A stretch of 64,000 bases of DNA, from the IMG/VR virus record IMGVR_UViG_2744054974_000002, positions 4,951 to 68,950 of that record; one strand, given 5' to 3'. The position numbers and the translations under genes were made by a program. The stretch comes from a virus (lineage: Duplodnaviria; Caudoviricetes). The first letter of the stretch is position 1; every line of letters begins with the position of its first letter. Positions 27,101 to 62,700 of this stretch are shown here, piece by piece. Under the pieces are notes generated by a model. That model worked only from the letters and a program-made list of their open reading frames with translations. It had not been told where the DNA came from and made no database searches.

Positions 27101-28470
27101 TGCTTGTTTACCAAACAGATAAAGTTTCTCAAGTAATGTATGGAAAAGATGTGATGTATAATGCTGATGGTACTTCAAATGTAGCCAAAGTTCCCTATGT
27201 ATTAGGTGAATCCGTTCCTTATGCAGGAGAATATGGAATGTCACACCCAGAATCATTTGAAAAAGAAGGTAATCGATGTTATTGGGTAGATGCTAAGCGT
27301 GGGCAAGTACTTCGCTTATCAAATAATGGAATTAGCCCAATTACCTATGGTTTGGAAGGATGGTTTAGAGATAATTTAACCAATAAACAAAATGCTAAAA
27401 TACTCGGAGGATATGATCCTTATACTAAACTATTTAATTTGACAATTGGAGATACACCAAATTATATCTCTCAAATAGTTAGTGGTTCTGAATTGGCAAG
27501 ATATCGAGTAAGTGATGAATTTGTTTTTGAATTAGCCTTGTCTAGACGAGTTGGTCAAACTATTTTTGAATACGATATTACAGAGGGCAGAGCTACTATT
27601 TCAGCAACATACGCTGGACGAGAATATGTAGAATCCAATGTGACCGGAATCGGACAACTTATTATCAATGTTGACGAAACAGAAACTACAGAAATACAAA
27701 CAACAGTAGTTCCTACAACAGAAACTGCGACATATTCTATTCGCTCATTTTCCCCTGAAGGAATTTCACAACGAATCACATTTATTACCTTGTCAAATGA
27801 TATGGTTTATGGACTTAATGTGAATCATAGTATTTCTATAAATGGCGGGCCAGAATTCTTTGATCAATTACTTATAGAAGATAATAACATAAATCAGTTT
27901 TCAGAAGAAATAGGCATCCAAGGAGAAGGTAAGTTCCCTAAGAAATCTGATACTATAACATTGAGAAGTTATAGTGATAACGATATAGCTGATTTAGCTA
28001 TTGGTTATGTTATATCAGATGAAAATTATTCAGAATCAGATCTACCTAAACTTATTAGCCAGGTTGTTCCATTAAAAACTACAAGCGGAAAAGAGATTGA
28101 GGGTTCATTTGATTTTACTTCTGAAGGTAATATTTATTTCGTCTATAATTATGGAGGATACAACCCTAATTATGAAAAAGTGTTGCCACCCTCTTATTTT
28201 GAATTAGGAATTGGAGCAGATAAATCCTCAATCGATGTTAAGTTTAAAAATGAGCAGGATAATTCCATTGTGAAAGGAAATGAAATCTCATATAGAAACT
28301 CAAAGGAAACACAATGGAGTGAAATTATATTTATTCCATATGTTGATAGTACTGAGCAAAATCACACTATTTCTGATTTATCCAATGGGTCAGAATATGA
28401 GGTAAGAATTAGAACAATAGGTATTGATAATAGTACTTCTGATTATTTAATTGAAACGATTGCACTATGA
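24169..28470 (+). CDS. tail stabilization/muzzle protein (N-terminal part) with added C-terminal domains, including an Fn3-like domain
   Basis: F.KG.MNKD.DER...G.YR.A.N start; FSYRYKY.DGE.S; GNR.V.GNY.EGY; YAGEYG.S.PESF; GGYDP; C-terminal ISDL..G.EYEVRIR. Confidence 0.8.
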   Translation: MPNIRRTFVKGVMNKDVDERLLDDGYYRHAENIIINTSEGSDVGAIEKCLSNKQLINFSGLFSLGSNIETVGSYSDEAKNKLYWWVISSKGCYLFGYDFNTKTIEGILLDSRPLSTRVLKLKRNTKITGIAKIISEDDSKDMLLWTDNNMEICCINIQRAKSYYANEFQKEDIYLIKKPPTKAPRIQKTFDRLSSNNIEEKFISFSYRYKYLDGEFSAMAPFTECAFEPKELEIDFSTQDNLSMINKFNSVKVFFNTGDKRVKEIQVLAKESNSNNVYIVETFNKKKESIGHNQEKSLSYSNNKLYKVLPEKDFFKQYDNVPRKAKALDVIGNRVVLGNYTEGYDLKDNQKKDINIDFRLSSTSSEIDKGLITSVNSGTQQLKLNNRLNLYKKGYGIKVFLDVLNDYYSEGNPNYEATLISETFLFTLYKDFSSLNEIYNDNAFSDFTNSINYYIEANIANWKLSPTDTINEYPKVSFRFLGNDLLLNISHGLLTQGPAGGGQLWTKFSDEAYFSVVEAGKGQSLKSNRDYEAAIVYADEFGRCSTAITSLENSIYIDPSKSASINKLQIEIKNKAPYWATSYRFAIKSAPLNYSNIIVSRFYVEDDFVWCKLEGSSKDKVNEGDILILKKDTSAEATKLTTIPILEKKSQPKDFIQGNKDASGNDIIEEAGTYIRIKAKDFVMNENNYKIYQDSKSDTRKSRGRYPDVTLVLPIDGNWGSLDLTEGSSVYLWMYSRNHLDEGWQENTFEKEWLINKENYNLQKWFDEYINGKDLWGTSGNDIKNYNEEIPGRRSEIKKVNVNGKDGLYIDGTHSASSGGRRGYLDAKMVVRTNTGYYIFETEEKKNLDTGIFYKTSQSFDIINGLHQGNLSNQTSNSAAKIELDFFNCFAFGNGLESYQIKDKFNANALNIDLQPTSTSEDDYSEVTRYSDLTYSESFIESTGFNGISSFNQTLINWKELDKGNGPIQKIVAREGNLLVYQTDKVSQVMYGKDVMYNADGTSNVAKVPYVLGESVPYAGEYGMSHPESFEKEGNRCYWVDAKRGQVLRLSNNGISPITYGLEGWFRDNLTNKQNAKILGGYDPYTKLFNLTIGDTPNYISQIVSGSELARYRVSDEFVFELALSRRVGQTIFEYDITEGRATISATYAGREYVESNVTGIGQLIINVDETETTEIQTTVVPTTETATYSIRSFSPEGISQRITFITLSNDMVYGLNVNHSISINGGPEFFDQLLIEDNNINQFSEEIGIQGEGKFPKKSDTITLRSYSDNDIADLAIGYVISDENYSESDLPKLISQVVPLKTTSGKEIEGSFDFTSEGNIYFVYNYGGYNPNYEKVLPPSYFELGIGADKSSIDVKFKNEQDNSIVKGNEISYRNSKETQWSEIIFIPYVDSTEQNHTISDLSNGSEYEVRIRTIGIDNSTSDYLIETIAL

Positions 28471-29186
28471 AAACATTAGGGTTTAAAGAAAAAGAAACTG
28501 GATGGGTGTCATTCTTTAGTTTTTTGCCTGACGCTTATTTACGACTTGGCGGAACTGCCTTTGTTATTAAAGACGGAAACCTTTGGCAGCAGAATGATAA
28601 ATCTAATCCAATTACCAATACTTTTTTTGGTGTAAAGTATCCATCAAAAATAAATACAGTGTTTAATGAGGTCCAAACCGATGACAAGATTTTCAAAACA
28701 TTTGTAATCGAAGGTAGCTCGTCTTGGGATGTTGAAATAAAGACTAACCTTACAAGAACTTCTTTAAAAGCTACGGACTTCAGTAAAAAGGAAAGTAGAT
28801 ACTTTGCTTATTTGCGAGGAAATGAACAAGTAGGTGACTTTAGCGGAAATGCACAAGGAATAGGAATTTGCCAAAGTAATAATTCTGACACCTTATTCTT
28901 TAAAACTGTTTCTGTACTTAGTAATATTGGTGATCAACTATTCAAACTAGATGGTGATAAATCACTTTTTGTCGGAAATATTATTGAAAAAACAGATAGT
29001 TCAATTCGAGTAGATGTCAGTCTAGTGGATAACCTCAACGGTTTTTATTTTTTCTCTAGCCGAAATGCAAGAGCAGATGGCGGAGAAATACGAGGTTATT
29101 ATGCCGATATAGAAATGGAAAATAACGATGATAAGCAAGTTGAATTATTTGCTATCAATGCTAACGTAATTAAATCATATGTTTAA
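28467..29186 (+). CDS. C-terminal portion of stabilization/muzzle protein encoded as a separate gene
   Basis: TL.F.E...GW.SF.S..PD, N.FFG, F.KKE, G.+RGYY and ELFA+ motifs; ATGA overlap with the upstream gene. Confidence 0.65.
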   Translation: MKTLGFKEKETGWVSFFSFLPDAYLRLGGTAFVIKDGNLWQQNDKSNPITNTFFGVKYPSKINTVFNEVQTDDKIFKTFVIEGSSSWDVEIKTNLTRTSLKATDFSKKESRYFAYLRGNEQVGDFSGNAQGIGICQSNNSDTLFFKTVSVLSNIGDQLFKLDGDKSLFVGNIIEKTDSSIRVDVSLVDNLNGFYFFSSRNARADGGEIRGYYADIEMENNDDKQVELFAINANVIKSYV

Positions 29187-44901: not shown

Positions 44902-46284
44902 CTACGCTATTTTTTTAGATTCAAAATGTTTTAAAATTCCTAGAGTATTTGCGGTAGCAAGAGCTTTAGATATATTCACGTCAACAGCATTCCCAATGTA
45001 TTTTTTTTGCTCTGCCTGTGTTCCTTTTAAAATGTAATCTTTCGGGAAGCCTTGAATTTGTTTTAACTCAGGTATTTTAAGCATACGCATATAAATATCA
45101 CTTATGCCATGTTCAGTCATTAATGCATTAATTAAGTACAAAGGTGATTTATCTTGTCTGGCAATAACCGTTGGGCATGGTCGATTTATAGAAGTTGAAT
45201 GACCTCCATATGCAGGATTGAATATAAAAGTTAATAAATTTTGCTTAGGCGTTGTTGTAACTGTCCTAGAAGGTTCATTAATAGATGAACAAAATCCTGT
45301 TTTATATTGGTTAAAAATGAGTTGTATTTTTGCAAAACGATCTTTTGTTGTAACAGTTCCCGCTGGGCTATTTACAGAATTGTAATTTATACCATTCCCA
45401 TAATACTTATAAAGAAAAACATCCTCTTCTTCCTTTAATGCTTTTATAATTCCTTTATAAATAACTTCAAGAGTTTTATCAACTAATGGCTTTTTTCTGT
45501 TAAAAATAGATTTGCCATAATCTCCCAGCTCTAAAATTTCCTTTACAGAATTCCATTTTTGTAATTCCTTGTCGAATAGATTGTCTTCAGGATTTTTAGC
45601 ATTAGTTCTATCTGGCCAACATATTGGAAATCCTTTTTTGCTAAATTGTATGAATAGCCTTTCACGAGTCTGATATGAACCATAATCAGCTGAATTACAT
45701 ATTTTATATTCATAATCATATCCTTTGTTTTTTATGGAATCTACCCAAGGATGGTAAAAAGTCCCTTTCTTGGTTTTATCTGGTATGTTTATATACTTTC
45801 CCTGTTTGTTTAATGATAGTACAGAATATAATCCAGATTCATGTAAATCAGATTTTAAACGAATTGGTCCCCAGTCTAAAAATTCAGTTACATTTTCAAT
45901 ATAAAAATAATCTATATCTAAAGCATCCAAATATATGTTCATATGATTAGCTAAACTTCTAGAATCCCCATCCCGTGATTGTCCCCCTTTTGCTCTTGAG
46001 TGGTTTGTACATTCCAGAGACGCCCAAAGATTAATAACTACATACGGTTCTTTTTTACGGATATTATCTACAATGTTTTTAATTTTCTGTACAACTTTAA
46101 AATCGCGTATATCCTCTGTAAAGTGTATTGCGCTTGGATGATTTGCTTTGTGTGATTCAATAGCATTTTTATCATGGTTTACACACGCAAGTACTTCTGT
46201 ATTTTCTCCAACTAGGTGAATACCTGTTGTGGTACCTCCCCCTCCACAAAAGAGGTCTATCCAATAAATTTTAATTCTATTCAT
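44902..46284 (-). CDS. C5-cytosine DNA methyltransferase
   Basis: DLFCGGGG (motif I), WASLECTNHS (IV variant), ENV (VI), Q.R.RLF (VIII), RML...EL..IQGFP..Y, IGNAV (IX-X). Confidence 0.9.
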   Translation of the reverse strand: MNRIKIYWIDLFCGGGGTTTGIHLVGENTEVLACVNHDKNAIESHKANHPSAIHFTEDIRDFKVVQKIKNIVDNIRKKEPYVVINLWASLECTNHSRAKGGQSRDGDSRSLANHMNIYLDALDIDYFYIENVTEFLDWGPIRLKSDLHESGLYSVLSLNKQGKYINIPDKTKKGTFYHPWVDSIKNKGYDYEYKICNSADYGSYQTRERLFIQFSKKGFPICWPDRTNAKNPEDNLFDKELQKWNSVKEILELGDYGKSIFNRKKPLVDKTLEVIYKGIIKALKEEEDVFLYKYYGNGINYNSVNSPAGTVTTKDRFAKIQLIFNQYKTGFCSSINEPSRTVTTTPKQNLLTFIFNPAYGGHSTSINRPCPTVIARQDKSPLYLINALMTEHGISDIYMRMLKIPELKQIQGFPKDYILKGTQAEQKKYIGNAVDVNISKALATANTLGILKHFESKKIA

Positions 46285-46286
46285 AA

Positions 46287-46904
46287 CTAAATCTGGTCTA
46301 AAATTGATAATTGGTTCTTCTGAGCAACCTTTTCTTTCTCCTTGCGTTCCGCTTCTTTCAAAACCTTTCTTGCAATACCAATCATTGATTTTTCATCTTC
46401 TTTGTAGGCTTGGATTAAGCCCGTTAGATTGATTAAATCAACAAAGTTTACTGACGCGATTTCGTGTATAAATTCATCGAAACACCCTTGAACATCGTCA
46501 ACATCTTCTTCTTTTTTCTTTACGAAATGTTTGTAATCAGGTATCAATCCCTTTACTGCTTCTGATGCATGCTTTAGGTGTTTGTAGGCTCCTTTCATCA
46601 CTTGACTTTTGAGAGGGAGGTTTGGAAGTGTGTGTTCAAATAAAACACTAAGCGAGGCAGACATAATCGTGATTTTAGTCATGGCATTTGCCTTAGAATA
46701 AATCAACTCACTTTCTGTAATTGGTTCTACTTTTGCCTCGCCTAGTTGTCTAGCAACAATAATTGCTTGTGCCTCTTTGTTTGTGTTAGCATATGTAGCA
46801 TTTGCTAAATCACAGAAGTAATTATATTTCCCGTTGTAGTATGTTTTTTTACTGCCTTCACCTTTTGTGATGATGAAGTATTTAGGCTCGTTTTGTGTGT
46901 TCAT
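46287..46904 (-). CDS. hypothetical protein
   Basis: ORF in operon. Confidence 0.7.
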   Translation of the reverse strand: MNTQNEPKYFIITKGEGSKKTYYNGKYNYFCDLANATYANTNKEAQAIIVARQLGEAKVEPITESELIYSKANAMTKITIMSASLSVLFEHTLPNLPLKSQVMKGAYKHLKHASEAVKGLIPDYKHFVKKKEEDVDDVQGCFDEFIHEIASVNFVDLINLTGLIQAYKEDEKSMIGIARKVLKEAERKEKEKVAQKNQLSILDQI

Positions 46905-46905
46905 T

Positions 46906-47646
46906 TTAAAAAAGTTTTGTTTGTGAGGATTCGTTATTTATTCTTTCAACTCCTAAATCGAAGTAGACTTTTTCAATTTCTAAACAGTTGTATTCTTTGA
47001 AATTGAATTTCATAGCACTTAATGCACAGCTGAATGATCCAGCATGTGTGTTAATTACTTTAAAGTTCGGTTTTGTGAAGTTTTTGTAAATCCAATCGTA
47101 AAGAATGATTGGCTTTTCTGTTGGGTGTATTCTTTTTTGATTTAAGGTTTTGTCACCTTGCATTATATGCCCTTCATTCATAGATTTTCCTTGCAACATT
47201 CCATTCCACATAAATCTGAAAACAGTAGTTGGAATATCAAAGTTTGTGTATGCTAATTCGTAGTCATTAAAACTCGATTTTCCATTGCATTTATCCCATA
47301 TAATCCAATTCTTAGGATTTTTATCAATAAAATCTTGGAGCTCTTTTTGTCCTCTTGGTGTCTTAAAAGGAACTCCTATAAAATCAAAATAATTAGCTCC
47401 CCAAACAATCCAATGTTTACAAGTTCTTTTAAGTTCAATAAACCATTTTAAGTCAGGAACTTCCCAATTGTTTGTAATAGGATAATCTCTTCTTTTTATG
47501 TTTAGTTTATTTACTTTGTTTCCATAGTACCCTCTTTTTTCAGGACCTTTGAAATATGGTGGGTCTGCATCTCCTAAATCAAAATACTTATCAGGCTTCG
47601 TTTTTAAGAAATCATAACAACAGTTATTGATAGGAATAATGTTCAT
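46906..47646 (-). CDS. N6-adenine/N4-cytosine DNA methyltransferase (beta class)
   Basis: DPPY, IIWDK, HPTEKP..LY and THAGS.S motifs. Confidence 0.88.
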   Translation of the reverse strand: MNIIPINNCCYDFLKTKPDKYFDLGDADPPYFKGPEKRGYYGNKVNKLNIKRRDYPITNNWEVPDLKWFIELKRTCKHWIVWGANYFDFIGVPFKTPRGQKELQDFIDKNPKNWIIWDKCNGKSSFNDYELAYTNFDIPTTVFRFMWNGMLQGKSMNEGHIMQGDKTLNQKRIHPTEKPIILYDWIYKNFTKPNFKVINTHAGSFSCALSAMKFNFKEYNCLEIEKVYFDLGVERINNESSQTKLF

Positions 47647-48144
47647 TTATAAAAAGATTAATTTACCTTGTAAACCGCTATTGATGATTGTATTGGTATC
47701 GTTCTCTGTATAAGAAATCAATACAGATGGTGCTCCACCATTTGCTTTTGCTTTTTTGCCTTTCACATCATAAAATGTTAATCTGCCTTTTAAGAAAAAT
47801 ATCGAATGAGCATAATTAAATACTAGATCTTGAAAGTAAGTTGTTTCTGTTCTAGCAAACATTAAGCAAATTCCGTTCTTGTGATCTGCCATTTTCTTCA
47901 ACCATTTATGAATGTGATATCTGTTATATGGCGGATTTAACCAGACTCTACCTTCCCAATTTTGTTGCAAACCATCATCTTGAATTGTAAGATGTTTTTT
48001 TGCTGTGTGCCATGGTCTTTTTATTGGGGAACAAGGGTCTAAATCAAATTCGCCTAGTTTTTCCAATATTTCAGGTGGTGTTAACCACTCGTCATTTTTT
48101 CCTTCTGGTGCTTGATGCCCTCCAATTCCTTTCATTTTAAACAA
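47647..48144 (-). CDS. phage N6-adenine DNA methyltransferase (Dam-like)
   Basis: DEW.TP, FDLDPC, DGL...W.G.VWLNPPY, ART.T and GRL.F motifs. Confidence 0.88.
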   Translation of the reverse strand: MFKMKGIGGHQAPEGKNDEWLTPPEILEKLGEFDLDPCSPIKRPWHTAKKHLTIQDDGLQQNWEGRVWLNPPYNRYHIHKWLKKMADHKNGICLMFARTETTYFQDLVFNYAHSIFFLKGRLTFYDVKGKKAKANGGAPSVLISYTENDTNTIINSGLQGKLIFL

Positions 48145-50787: not shown

Positions 50788-51196
50788 CTTCGTTGTACTG
50801 TGGTGTAGGAGGAAATTGATTACCTGGAGCAGGTTGACTTTGTTGATTCTGTTTCCATTGCTGATGAGCATCTGCTGCCGAACCTTGGCCGTGGTAAGTG
50901 CCATCTTGCATTTGCGGTTGGTTTACAGCTGCAGTAATTTTCCAAGCTTGAATTGTGTTGAAATATCTTACTTCGCCTTGTGGTGAAGTCCACTCTCTGC
51001 CTTTGAGATTTAAGTCTACCTTTACGTAAGTTCCGACTTGGAATCCGTCTAGTAAATTCACTCTGTCTTGAGTTACTTCGATTAGGATGTCTTGCGGATA
51101 TTGTTCATCCGTTGTAACGACAAACTCTCTTTTTTTAAAAGAAGAGCTAATATCTTGAGTGCTTCCTATTAGTTTTATACGTCCTTGTATGTCCAT
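50762..51196 (-). CDS. single-stranded DNA-binding protein (DUF3127 family)
   Basis: [18 protein letters not shown]...G...YFN.I.AWKI and acidic tail DDEDNLPF. Confidence 0.85.
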
Positions 51197-51198
51197 GG

Positions 51199-51366
51199 TT
51201 AAATATTTGGTGGTGAGATTGTTTGCCCATTTTCGTTATAATGAACACACTTATACCATTCGTTTTTTAGTTTCTCATACTCTTTTGATTTATGATCATT
51301 CCAACCATAAATACTAGCTTCTTTTTTAAGAGTTTCTATTTCTTTTTTAATCGTTTCTTTACTCAT
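51199..51366 (-). CDS. hypothetical protein, 55 aa (not in ORF track)
   Basis: MSKETIKKEIETLKKEASIYGWNDHKSKEYEKLKNEWYKCVHYNENGQTISPPNI; ends 2 bp before the SSB start. Confidence 0.6.
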   Translation of the reverse strand: MSKETIKKEIETLKKEASIYGWNDHKSKEYEKLKNEWYKCVHYNENGQTISPPNI

Positions 51367-51522
51367 ATTATTTTGCCGATTCCTACAATCGGGAAGTTTT
51401 ACTTATTATATTTACACTATACTTAACAATAAGTACTTTTAAGTATTATTTTAACTATAATTAAATTATTTATCTCAATAAAATCAGTAACTTTATTATC
51501 ATAAAAACAGGTTTCAACAAAA

Positions 51523-51861
51523 GAAAGCAAGCACAGTCTGTTTTTCATAATACAATTTTCAATCTAAATTTTATTTTATTGCTACTAGGGCTGTGCTTTG
51601 CTTTCATATAAAACATGAAAGAGGGTATAGGGACTTTTCTGCATCAATAAAAACAAAATGTTTTTATAAAAGTGGGGACTTCATTGCAGATTTTTAAACA
51701 TATACAACCTAGACCTCTTTCTACTATTTTAAAGGAAAGGAGTAGAAAATTTATTAAGTAGTCGATTGTGTATTAAATTAATTAGGTGTAGATTCAGTCA
51801 CAATGATTACAATCAATGGTAGTTTTAAATAACATTACAAAAATTAATTAATACTCCTTTC
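51523..51861 (+). ncRNA. candidate ncRNA array: three tandem stem-loops closed by GAAAG...CTTTC
   Basis: Units 51523-51605, 51617-51721 and 51735-51861 with 11- and 13-nt linkers; no long ORF; G-U pairs favour the + strand. Confidence 0.6.
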
Positions 51862-51882
51862 TCTTTTTCATCTTCCATCATC

Positions 51883-52278
51883 CTATAATTTTTCAATATC
51901 TACATCCCAAAGACCTAGTTTGCCTTTTACGTTTAGAATTGGTTTTTCATAGAAAACAGCGTCTTTTAAAACCCAGTGCCAAATACCTTCTCCTTTATCT
52001 GCCCAAATTGATTTGTGGTTTTGAACACAATCTGCAATAGTAACTTCGCCGATAATTGCACTAAGAGTTAATATTGGCTTCTGTATTGATTTTATGATTG
52101 TGTATTGCTCATTAGTTAATGAAGCATTTTTATCACCATACATTGGCGCGTGTATGTAAACACGTCCTCTGAATCTAGTTCGCCAAGTTCTGTTCTCGAT
52201 ATCCTTAACCCCTAGGCAGATTAACTCTGCCCAAGGTTGCTTTACTGAAAGTGCTTTAGTTATTTCTTTGCCAGCCAT
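51883..52278 (-). CDS. ASCH domain protein
   Basis: ALSVKQPWA.LI..G.KDIENR.W.T..RG.VYIHA and KG.LGLW. Confidence 0.9.
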   Translation of the reverse strand: MAGKEITKALSVKQPWAELICLGVKDIENRTWRTRFRGRVYIHAPMYGDKNASLTNEQYTIIKSIQKPILTLSAIIGEVTIADCVQNHKSIWADKGEGIWHWVLKDAVFYEKPILNVKGKLGLWDVDIEKL

Positions 52279-57265: not shown

Positions 57266-57514
57266 CTAGCGTTTGTCTAGAAACATTTTGCCTTTACCTT
57301 GTAGTTGATATTCTATGGAAATACCGAATGAATCGCATAATTTTAGAACAACATCAATTCCTACATTGGTCCTTCTTGATATAAAGTCAGCCAATGTATT
57401 TGGTTCTATACCAAGTTCTCTGGATAGTTCTTGCCTAGACTGAACTTTTTTTGTTTTAATTAAATGATCGACAGATTCAGCAAAACGATCATTAATCTCA
57501 TATGCTATACTCAT
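57266..57514 (-). CDS. XRE/Cro-like HTH regulator
   Basis: SRQELSRELGI..NTL......R......V.KLC..FGIS.EY...GKG.MF. Confidence 0.8.
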   Translation of the reverse strand: MSIAYEINDRFAESVDHLIKTKKVQSRQELSRELGIEPNTLADFISRRTNVGIDVVLKLCDSFGISIEYQLQGKGKMFLDKR

Positions 57515-58218
57515 TGCGCAGCGGTGTTAACGATTCCTAATATTTTAGCGATGTACCCAAGTCCTTTTTGAGTAACCATTGTTTGAGGTTCTACTTTAGT
57601 GATAGTAGAGTCTCCTTTTTTAATTTGTATCATCGTCTGCTTCAATGCGAAGTAACCACGATTAACAAATTCTTGCTTTGGTTCTTTGGATCCTTTAAAT
57701 AGGATTCCTTTATCCCTTAAAATGTTGTAGAGGATGTTTCGTCCAATATCAAGACCCAGTGATTTTGAAGCTTCTGACATTGTTAACAGTCCATCAGAAG
57801 AAAAAACCTTATCAATGTATTCATCGCGTGGTTTCATTCTCTGGTTCTCTAAAAGCAATGCTTCTTTTTCTTGTTCGCTTTCCAAAAGCATAATTGCTAA
57901 ATCTTTTTTAGTGATTGATTCTAAACTTGGTTTAGCTGATTGCTTTTCTAATTCCTCCCAACGTATAATGAGTTTTGCTCTCGCTTCGTCATTAAATTTC
58001 GTTGCGATATAAAGACATTCTTTTTTTAATAGTTGGTATTCAGGTCTTTTTTCTCCTTTAGTGTCTATATAATCAACGAGGGAAAATTTACCTCCGTTAA
58101 CTTTTTCCCATGCAGATTCCATCTTTCGGATTGCTTTTAATATATCTGCATGAGATTTTCCAGTCATCGCAGCAATTTCTCTACTTGACATCGTATGGTT
58201 TATTTCAATTTGCTTCAT
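57511..58218 (-). CDS. Rha-family antirepressor with C-terminal ANT/KilAC domain
   Basis: MSSREIA.MTGK.H..I..AIR, Y.D.KGE.RP.Y.L, GRN.L...LR and VT.KG..YI. Confidence 0.88.
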   Translation of the reverse strand: MKQIEINHTMSSREIAAMTGKSHADILKAIRKMESAWEKVNGGKFSLVDYIDTKGEKRPEYQLLKKECLYIATKFNDEARAKLIIRWEELEKQSAKPSLESITKKDLAIMLLESEQEKEALLLENQRMKPRDEYIDKVFSSDGLLTMSEASKSLGLDIGRNILYNILRDKGILFKGSKEPKQEFVNRGYFALKQTMIQIKKGDSTITKVEPQTMVTQKGLGYIAKILGIVNTAAQ

Positions 58219-58289
58219 AAATACTTATATTTAAGATAGATTTAACTTATATATGTATTCACATCGTCAATATATATCTATATAATCCG

Positions 58290-58545
58290 TACTTTTGCAA
58301 GACGAATTATCGTGTAAAAACGATGATAAAAGAAAGCTAACACAGGCGGATGTATAACACAAGCCAGAACAGCGTTTGGTAGTAACATTGTGTTACACGT
58401 TTGATAGAGCAGTGCTTATCAGACTTTATGAAACCTGTGTTTTGCTTTCTGAAAGGTTTTTAATTTTTGACAGGTATTGACGCCCCTCGTGGCGTTTTGA
58501 AACAAAGCGATTAAAGTAGTTTAAAATATATCAAAATTAAAAATG
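58290..58545 (+). ncRNA. structured 5' leader/ncRNA with GAAAGC...GCTTTC basal stem
   Basis: Promoter TACTTTTG(58290-58297); hairpin 58307-58326; three-way junction 58331-58450; stem 58457-58470/58531-58543 covering the start region of the next ORF. Confidence 0.6.
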
Positions 58546-58977: not shown

Positions 58978-59103
58978 AATTAAGGATGATTAAAATTTAG
59001 TTTAACTTAATTTGCTTGTTTCCCGATATGTCAAAGATCATTTGATATCACTATACGAGTATATTTTAAAAAGAGTGTTCTCGTATAGTGATTTTTGTTG
59101 TTA

Positions 59104-59160
59104 CAAATATATATCAATTTAATTGATATATAAAAACAAAATATCAATTAAATTGATATT
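59104..59160. promoter_or_regulatory. genetic-switch region: two operators ATATCAATTWAATTGATAT and a leftward promoter
   Basis: Palindromes centred at 59120 and 59150; minus-strand TATATTTG at 59104-59111 overlaps the first. Confidence 0.7.
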
Positions 59161-61488: not shown

Positions 61489-61654
61489 TTTATCAAACCG
61501 TTTTATCGTTAAATATCTCTATACTTATTTGTTACTTACATATACGTTTAGTATATTTATATGTGTTTAAACATTAAACAATATTTTGCGAAGTGTAAAT
61601 TGTTTTTTACATTTGCAATCACTTTTTAAGTAACCTATTTAAAAAGAGTATATT

Positions 61655-61789
61655 ATGAAAAAAGCCGAAATAATTAAAATGATCAAAGATATGTCAGAAA
61701 GAAAATCTTTGATGAAGTCTTATAGTAATGGTAAAATAACTAAAGATCAATTAGAACAAAGAGGAGTAAAATTAGTTAAACCATTTTAA
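61655..61789 (+). CDS. 44-aa basic protein (not in ORF track)
   Basis: MKKAEIIKMIKDMSERKSLMKSYSNGKITKDQLEQRGVKLVKPF; promoter TACATTTG at 61608-61615. Confidence 0.7.
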   Translation: MKKAEIIKMIKDMSERKSLMKSYSNGKITKDQLEQRGVKLVKPF

Positions 61790-61798
61790 TATAAAGAG

Positions 61799-62284
61799 AT
61801 GCCCTACCCTTTTGAATGGGATGAACATAGAAGATTATATTCTTTTACTACTGCAACAAATTTAACGTATGAATTATCCTTTACTAAAGATGAAAATCTA
61901 AATATTGGTAATGCTGATAATCCTATAGATAATATATATCATTTTGTTTTAGCTAAGAGAGAGGAAGATCAAAATATTAAATCAAATGATAAGGATATCT
62001 CTGAAACAATTAGGGCTGTCGTAACTGCCTTTTTCCAAAACAATATTAATTACACTTTAGTTTATACTTGTGATGATGAGGATAATAAAGGTATATGTAG
62101 ATTTGTGCTTTTTGAAAAATGGTATAAAACATGGGTAGTTCCAGATTACGAAAAAATTGATAACATAATTGAGTTAGATGATACACGCATCTTTACATCA
62201 ATAATCTTGCACAAGTCCAATGAAAATTATGACGTCATTATAGATAGACATAAAAACATTGTTCAAAACTACAAAAGAGAATAA
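61799..62284 (+). CDS. DUF6169-like protein
   Basis: Y.F.T....Y.L.F, D..I.ETI......FF..N and LVY.CD..D.K...R..LF.KWY pattern. Confidence 0.6.
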   Translation: MPYPFEWDEHRRLYSFTTATNLTYELSFTKDENLNIGNADNPIDNIYHFVLAKREEDQNIKSNDKDISETIRAVVTAFFQNNINYTLVYTCDDEDNKGICRFVLFEKWYKTWVVPDYEKIDNIIELDDTRIFTSIILHKSNENYDVIIDRHKNIVQNYKRE

Positions 62285-62316
62285 AAGCAAAAGCCACTCG
62301 ATTGAGTGGCTTATTT
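62282..62316. repeat. 35-bp direct repeat/terminator copy 2
   Basis: Identical to 61454-61488. Confidence 0.9.
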
Positions 62317-62700
62317 ATTTTTCCTAAGTTCTTCTAGTTCCTTGAGTATTCGGATTTGAGTTTTAGCGATGACATCTAGTTTTGCGATAATTTGCTGATT
62401 ACCTAAGATATCTACGTCTGTGCCGATTAAGTTTTGTTGCAACTGTTTAATTGTATGATCAACAGTAAATACGGGCAACTCCCCTTTTGTCAAAAACAAA
62501 TAGTTTATCTCTGGGCATTTTTCTATTGCTTTTTTGGCAAATGCAGGCGTTATGGAAGCGGTTCTTCCATAAACAATAGAATCAACCACTGAGTTGTTAT
62601 TATATCCTAATTTCTCTCCTAAGTGCATTGTAGCGATTCCGAATTCTTGTGCTAACATTTTAAGTCGTTCAGCTGGGCTTTCGATTATTTTTTTCTCCAT
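62311..62700 (-). CDS. XRE-like HTH protein co-transcribed with the integrase
   Basis: RLK.L....GI....LGEKLG...I..GR...IT...IN..FL..GE; starts 1 bp after the integrase stop. Confidence 0.7.
   Translation of the reverse strand: MEKKIIESPAERLKMLAQEFGIATMHLGEKLGYNNNSVVDSIVYGRTASITPAFAKKAIEKCPEINYLFLTKGELPVFTVDHTIKQLQQNLIGTDVDILGNQQIIAKLDVIAKTQIRILKELEELRKNK

Follow-up and report, generated by a model that had tools for sequence, protein, structure and literature searches.

Inside the early operon of a Myroides-type provirus lies a tandem array of three end-paired units (51523..51861 of the window, the 64,000-nucleotide stretch analysed here) that is real, structured, non-coding and uncatalogued, while a fourth such unit occupies a promoter-RNA slot that opposes the leader of an antirepressor-type gene and is kept in these phages with its content swapped. 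We give a probability of roughly 0.35 to the reading that the units are antisense RNAs, unit 4 acting against the prophage's own early leader and units 1-3 being captured versions with other specificities.

The window comes from a 68,950-bp provirus record whose SSB clusters with proteins having Myroides odoratus as their named members. Three related proviruses, G001 (a sister prophage), G002 and G003 (also L001-L003), were compared whole with the provirus under study, which is G000 in these four-prophage comparisons. The operon runs on the minus strand, and the array is bordered on one side by an ASCH-domain gene (51883..52278, minus strand, by domain search), and on the other by the SSB gene and a 55-aa ORF (51199..51366, minus strand) that has no known family in Pfam or PHROGs and, in the alignment of the relatives, travels with the cassette that holds the array. 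The same operon carries three DNA methyltransferase genes (44902-48144, minus strand), and in the sister prophage an insert in it (6370-7995 of L001) encodes a 541-aa protein with 23-residue leucine-rich-type repeats. The virion module contains a crAss-like muzzle domain (28467-29186, plus strand).

All of the units reported in the earlier note, three in tandem and a fourth copy at a distance, are present where it had placed them, and folding of the plus strand resolves them as follows. Unit 1 (51523..51605) has 83 nt and a closing stem of ~17 bp with one bulge; unit 2 (51617..51721) has 105 nt, a closing stem of 8+4 bp and an inner three-way junction; unit 3 (51735..51861) has 127 nt, a 10-bp closing stem and a long inner hairpin, and is followed by a U-rich run; and unit 4 (58332..58449) is a 118-nt three-way junction. 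The AU-rich linkers on the same strand, of 11 nt (51606..51616) and 13 nt (51722..51734), are predicted cut sites. A GAAAG/CTTTC helix closes all four units, and the interiors are unique, partly unpaired and fold into further helices. Each unit pairs end to end in the folding check, with plus-strand z values against shuffles of -5.06, -3.96, -3.83 and -4.17 for units 1 to 4. The 69-kb record has 79 end-paired stretches, and by strength of the closing duplex units 1, 4 and 2 come first, third and fifth among them. Dinucleotide shuffles of the cassette gave a chain of two end-paired units with any ends once in 1000, and a chain of three sharing one terminal 5-mer in none of 1000. At the junctions 51596-51621 and 51717-51747, alternative hairpins across the linkers (7 and 8 bp) compete with the closing stems, and by sequence the interior of unit 1 resembles a reversed gene start.

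Pairwise comparison of the units bears out the claim that they share a terminal helix around unrelated interiors. It also upholds the proposed homology of unit 1 to the stem of unit 4 (kinship z 3.84), kinship beyond the terminal 5 bp being absent in the other five unit pairs (z -1.24 to 0.35). The compensatory G-C to A-T change between units 1 and 4 is there, but so is a pair-breaking change at position 7 that had gone unmentioned. An Rfam scan, one of the checks proposed earlier, matched no family at the gathering threshold or at E 5, ARAGORN gave no match in the array units, and the two small minus-strand ORFs (36-37 aa) that overlap units 1 and 4 had no PHROG match. As a candidate new ncRNA family, then, the set is non-random, non-coding and outside Rfam, but the homologues found are those of the sister prophage and one sequencing run.

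The island of about 500 bp described in the early operon corresponds to a swappable non-coding cassette of ~490 bases (51402..51892) between the 55-aa ORF/SSB side and the ASCH gene, which moves as a block. Its borders follow from relatives: contigs of sequencing runs X1 and X2 depart from the window at 51401 and rejoin it at 51892-51895, while the site holds ~100 bp in G002 and ~1.9 kb with other ORFs in G003. The early operon of these relatives runs without the cassette. G001 has no mismatch to the record over 51131-51911, whereas the 370 nt on the left side contain 40, which would be consistent with recent exchange or selection. Because the G001 copy is identical, covariation is unreadable in units 1-3, and the material that can be aligned comes to two unit arms with no variant copies. 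Run X6 covers 51694-51920 with one difference, and the sole RNA run among X1-X6 is from a relative that lacks the cassette; gaps in the cover of these runs carry no weight as to expression. Just outside the left border, a conserved hairpin (51367-51400) is kept in G003, X1 and X2 before different genes and is likely an exchange point for accessory DNA. A further module (61499-62327, plus strand), with its own -7 box, a ~44-aa ORF and a DUF6169 gene, is 99% identical in G001 and missing from G002 and G003, a distribution it has in common with unit 4 and the cassette. The start of the ~44-aa ORF matches unit 1 over 12 nt (-10.1 kcal), a pairing that is not among the best of that unit.

The distribution of the array is narrow, namely two sister prophages and one run. 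BLAST of the island and the units against phages and plasmids returned short weak matches only, the best of them (E 6e-4) being to a 45-nt piece outside unit 4; a match to a Chryseobacterium plasmid was set aside as lying inside a gene. Scans with the handle pattern, i.e. the paired terminal motif, found one locus in a viral collection (the sister prophage), four loci in a second viral search (two in the sister prophage and two within long ORFs), and one locus without a tandem in a one-genome-per-species collection (an Oscillospiraceae contig). Metagenomes gave 81 loci with 58 distinct sequences, 46 of these inside frames of >100 codons and 12 outside, the latter consisting of two CRISPR arrays, three loci without phage context and seven judged by fold and neighbours only. 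An array pattern whose positive control worked matched 33 viral loci, the sister prophage and 32 others that had no tandem of end-paired units. Such scans demand exact motifs and may omit very near records, and the rarity holds only at that sensitivity.

Inverted repeats around unrelated interiors, together with sharp cassette borders, would also be expected of DNA-level elements with no RNA role, such as MITE- or REP-like repeats, tiny invertible segments or recombination sites. We consider this very improbable, since the arms contain bulges, G-T pairs and mismatches and differ between units, the interiors form further helices, the four prophages contain no scattered copies bearing these inverted repeats at their ends, and the X1 and X2 contigs, at thin cover, contain no inversion.

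Whole-island folding distinguishes the strands (z -3.95 on plus, -1.02 on minus). The plus-strand transcript proposed in the earlier note is well argued for unit 4, where a promoter in the slot opposes the early operon, and for units 1-3 it is favoured by folding energy. The G-U pairs that had been offered as evidence of strand do not discriminate, with even counts on the two strands in unit 1 (2 vs 2), the island (7 vs 7) and unit 4 (4 vs 4). The -7 box TAACTTTA put forward as the promoter of the array (51488..51495, plus strand) is indeed near-consensus, with one mismatch to the Bacteroidota consensus, but it is one of three such boxes in a stretch that is 83% AT, the other two weak candidates being at 51407..51414 and 51434..51441 on the same strand. 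A seeming homology between the sequences that lead into units 1 and 4 did not stand up (P 0.16; 195 of 526 intergenic windows were equally good).

Unit 4 stands in front of a Rha + KilAC antirepressor-type gene (57511..58218, minus strand; Pfam PF09669 and PF03374), 114-231 nt upstream of it; this is the first gene behind the slot. The folding energy of unit 4 is equal on both strands (-39.2/-39.3). None of its 118 positions differs in G001, compared with 10 differences in ~180 nt of flanking sequence (P 0.002-0.03). An extended -7 promoter box (58289..58299, plus strand, with an exact -7 box at 58290-58297) faces from the antirepressor gene into unit 4. There are two such extended boxes in G000, one in G001 and two in G003, and in all three prophages having the slot one of them stands in it in the same orientation, G002 being without the region. 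The predicted transcript would start at ~58304 and read away from the antirepressor start codon (58218); it would open with a leader hairpin (58306..58327, plus strand), in whose loop the single G001 difference falls. A GC-rich hairpin with a short U run (58479..58496, plus strand), a putative terminator, is kept in three prophages and shows one A-U to C-G change, although with three sequences 175 of 500 shuffles score equally high. On the minus strand, a predicted early promoter (-7 box 59104-59111) with its hairpin (59047..59111) begins the antirepressor leader within which unit 4 falls, and this hairpin, compared in three sequences, is altered yet still pairs in G001 and G003. G003 retains the same box and the same GC-rich hairpin around an unrelated three-way-junction RNA, which is why we describe the slot as kept and its content as swapped. 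For the G003 RNA the best fold is that of the mRNA strand (z -4.31); this RNA lacks the GAAAG/CTTTC handle, and the slot therefore does not require one.

Antisense action would connect these features as follows. A lysogen would transcribe the plus strand at both sites, against the early operon, and cleavage of the AU-rich linkers would release species of 83, 105 and 127 nt, whose paired GAAAG/CUUUC ends might protect them or be read by the processing nuclease. Unit loops would initiate pairing with a complementary leader, and the resulting duplex would cause termination or be degraded through RNase III, so that antirepressor and replication genes stay off. Unit 4 would thus be a brake on the structured leader of the prophage's own antirepressor gene, while units 1-3 would be captured RNAs of the same type that recognise the leaders of other, possibly rival, phages; since units 1 and 4 agree in arms and orientation, the cassette may collect same-type RNAs with other payloads. 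A slot swap would change the immunity type because the RNA fits no leader but one that matches its sequence, and superinfection immunity would be broadened by having three different units in tandem. If true, the swappable promoter-RNA slot and the RNA tandem would provide a handle on the protein-free setting and widening of immunity in temperate phages of Bacteroidota. To our knowledge, RNA-based lysogeny control and RNA anti-CRISPRs have been described almost solely in enterobacterial and streptococcal phages.

Several observations favour the antisense reading. Unit 4 stands upstream of the Rha/KilAC gene, where P1 c4 and P22 sar act according to PMC12197685, and is invariant against diverged flanks in G001. 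A rare extended -7 box holds the slot with the same facing in three of three prophages, and the unrelated RNA in the G003 slot is what a swap of specificity would be expected to leave. That unit 4 folds equally on both strands, and the G003 RNA best on the mRNA strand, is as a sense/antisense pair should be. Units 1-3, finally, fold better on the plus strand and move as one block. On the other hand, the handle-less G003 RNA, the uncovered start codon and the weak promoter of the cassette count against the reading, and the common 5-bp end and the likeness to a Cas9 repeat considered below are left unaccounted for by antisense action alone. Searches for targets of units 1-3 were negative within their scope: over the seven of eight strands covered, the best pairings with 347 phage gene starts did not exceed those of shuffles, 15 of 16 segments gave P of at least 0.125 against 91 G000 gene starts (the remaining segment gave P 0/40), none of 12 antirepressor starts stood out, and three early leaders showed no significant pairing (P 0.3-0.93). 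Viral pattern scans and the prophage comparison found no phage with a leader like unit 1, 2 or 3. On its minus strand, unit 4 has a 10-bp match to the antirepressor start codon that is the best of 91 starts but fourth among 42 genes in a matched control, and that is missing in G003.

Among known systems, sar and OOP as well as c4 regulate antirepressor or cII, and c4 sets P1/P7 heteroimmunity, as set out in PMC12197685. The kept slot with swapped content follows the pattern of these antisense immunity RNAs, and hence supports a likeness in working rather than membership. With P22 sar and lambda OOP, unit 4 shares a promoter of its own that opposes the early or antirepressor transcript (the cassette has one-mismatch boxes only), but the predicted RNA covers the leader and not the antirepressor start or coding region, unit 4 is longer and end-paired, and three further units reside in a separate cassette. 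The c4 RNA folds into a three-way structure, as does P4 CI, and is cut from the antirepressor transcript; to the best of our knowledge no tandem array of different c4 RNAs exists. Likeness to c4 (RF01695) and P4 CI is confined to unit 4, a three-way-junction RNA of the ~80-120-nt class directly upstream of an antirepressor. The content of its slot differs between related phages as c4 does between P1 and P7 (PMC12197685), but there is no match to the RF01695 covariance model even at E 5, the promoter evidence puts unit 4 on the strand opposite the antirepressor transcript, and no significant target boxes occur at the antirepressor start.

The structures might instead act in cis within the minus-strand early mRNA, as RNase III sites or as attenuators that adjust the output of the antirepressor and replication genes, perhaps also releasing small RNAs from the operon strand, much as in the lambda N leader or the Qin dicBF operon. 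Unit 4 scores better on the minus strand (z -5.66) and comes after the early promoter and two conserved hairpins; UUUU follows units 1 and 4 on that strand; and end-paired leaders precede antirepressor genes of other Bacteroidota phages too (L030 and L036). We nonetheless judge this unlikely, and place it behind the Cas9 explanation taken up next, given that the island folds worse on the minus strand (z -1.02 vs -3.95), that relatives have the same operon without the cassette, and that both the conserved opposing promoter and the one terminal 5-mer common to three different stems are left unexplained.

The main rival to antisense action, which we also hold to be unlikely, is that the units are RNA anti-CRISPR decoys: units 1 and 4 would mimic the repeat:anti-repeat duplex of Bacteroidota II-C systems in circularly permuted form and soak up Cas9, and units 2 and 3 would either have drifted from that form or serve as decoys for related defence proteins that bind RNA. 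II-C repeats of Flavobacteriaceae start with a 16-mer similar to the 3' arm of units 1 and 4, as a search confirmed. The repeats compared, which may differ from those of the host, came from two metagenome arrays, in which ten letters were fixed by the search pattern, and from a plasmid with repeat, cas9 and tracrRNA (L111, L123 and L185 in all). In register with the first 16 nt of these repeats, the 3' arms match at 14/16 (unit 1) and 13/16 (unit 4), and the 5' arms match the anti-repeat at 12-13/15 with one deletion; of 685 other 16-mers ending in CTTTC, three reach 13/16 and one reaches 14/16. Since units 1 and 4 represent one event and the likeness was noticed post hoc, we put the chance of such a repeat match at ~1-3%. 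Also in favour of decoys, PMC7606464 gives GAAAG/CUUUC as the outer duplex end in clade X sgRNAs and lists a Cas9 for Myroides odoratus, grouped with that of Capnocytophaga canis, and phage RNAs that inhibit Cas9 are known from two reports (10.64898/2026.06.01.729453 and 10.64898/2026.06.03.729762). One spacer of the L123 II-C array, near 1590-1620, has an anti-repeat-like stretch.

Against the decoys, the near-invariant nexus and tail of tracrRNA occur in no unit (one three-mismatch match in the window, 0.91 expected), unit interiors do not resemble the tracrRNA body (P 0.09-0.96), and units 2 and 3 match the repeat at just 6-7/16. Pairing between the two arms of a unit (-24 and -19) is stronger than their pairing with either the tracrRNA or the repeat (-13 to -17), and the permuted form was found in none of 19 viral loci carrying a tracrRNA core. 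In the two reports on phage inhibitors of Cas9, vsgRNA and rAcrIIA1 are prophage-encoded RNAs of ~90-110 nt with pairing repeat- and anti-repeat-like arms, a likeness limited to units 1 and 4, but their order is guide-repeat-loop-anti-repeat-tail. Here the order of the arms is reversed, the anti-repeat-like arm coming first on either strand; nexus, tail and 3' hairpins are missing; and units 2 and 3 are without repeat likeness. The decoy explanation keeps its standing because a permuted topology would still place the interior on the Cas9-binding side. If true, it would mean a natural RNA in which the repeat duplex is permuted, on a scaffold not found among the phage sgRNA mimics of those two reports, and would be more striking than an antisense device. 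A CRISPR mini-array or solitary-repeat Racr was considered and rejected: 16/47 repeat positions compared match and the units share 5 bp, which falls short of whole near-identical repeats. More broadly, and also as an unlikely reading that we rate slightly above the decoys, the cassette would be a phage-made, memory-like RNA array whose end-paired units have a common handle and different payloads, either with an exapted Cas9 duplex in permuted order as the handle of natural guides or decoys, or as a collected antisense library against rival antirepressor leaders. Neither a permuted Cas9-duplex RNA nor an antisense library array was found in the literature searched, which was mainly open-access, and no paper on such an end-paired RNA array turned up there.

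Of the functions first suggested for the array (guides, antisense RNAs or decoys), decoys are kept in play by the partial likeness to a Cas9 duplex, but no hallmark of a retron, a type III antitoxin or a guide RNA was found. The units could still be trans-acting small RNAs or antitoxin-like decoys, directed at host mRNAs or at a host defence protein that binds RNA and is not Cas9; a protein of host or phage would then read the handle. The cassette occupies an accessory slot on its own strand, and its interiors are unique and partly unpaired, that of unit 1 being like a reversed gene start. We rank this last among the unlikely RNA explanations, as neither Pfam (64 proteins) nor PHROGs (16 proteins) named an RNA-binding effector, most of these proteins being without a family, and as the units do not resemble the tandem arrays of antitoxins or dCas12f guides, in which the copies are alike. 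Type III antitoxin arrays place tandem copies of similar sequence before a toxin gene; these units are unlike each other and have ASCH, SSB and the 55-aa ORF as neighbours, and that candidate was rejected. The dCas12f-sigmaE guide arrays of Flavobacteriales are, according to PMC13472631, tandem RNAs of 85-105 nt with a shared scaffold and a 3' guide behind dcas12f. They are comparable in tandem arrangement and size, but the present units share 5 bp and no scaffold, and no dcas12f or rpoE was named nearby. DicF of the dicBF operon in the Qin prophage is a single small RNA released by nucleases from the operon strand. Its intergenic position within a prophage early operon is alike, but folding here favours the strand opposite the operon and there are three units. 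The Bacteroidetes motifs of PMC2864571 did not fit.

Other structured elements came to light elsewhere. Nine phage loci (L152, L153, L158, L159, L161, L171, L174, L182 and L183) share, around positions 560-830, a cassette unrelated to the array, in the order sigma70 promoter, hairpin, end-paired leader of ~90-98 nt, SD, 20-aa ORF and terminator. The ORF product is basic/hydrophobic and an opposing promoter lies inside the leader; the cassette looks like a type I toxin-antitoxin family, and the three of the nine loci that were scanned had no Rfam match. In two Bacteroidota-like phages (L030 2800-3000 and L036 2810-3000, plus strand), leaders of Rha-type genes combine a -7 box and a 15-bp end-paired stem with an interleaved alternative hairpin and U tract, an attenuator-like arrangement without an Rfam match. 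Positions 79-216 of the window (plus strand) have tRNA-like ends, with D-arm-like and T-arm-like parts and a closing stem, around an insert of ~70 nt; missed by ARAGORN and Rfam, this element has a fold z of only -1.11 on the plus strand, is 97% kept in G001 and is mostly missing from the G003 alignment. Directly after it, at 235-414 on the same strand, a 14-bp long-range stem closes four small hairpins (z -2.81) and is possibly a second non-coding RNA.
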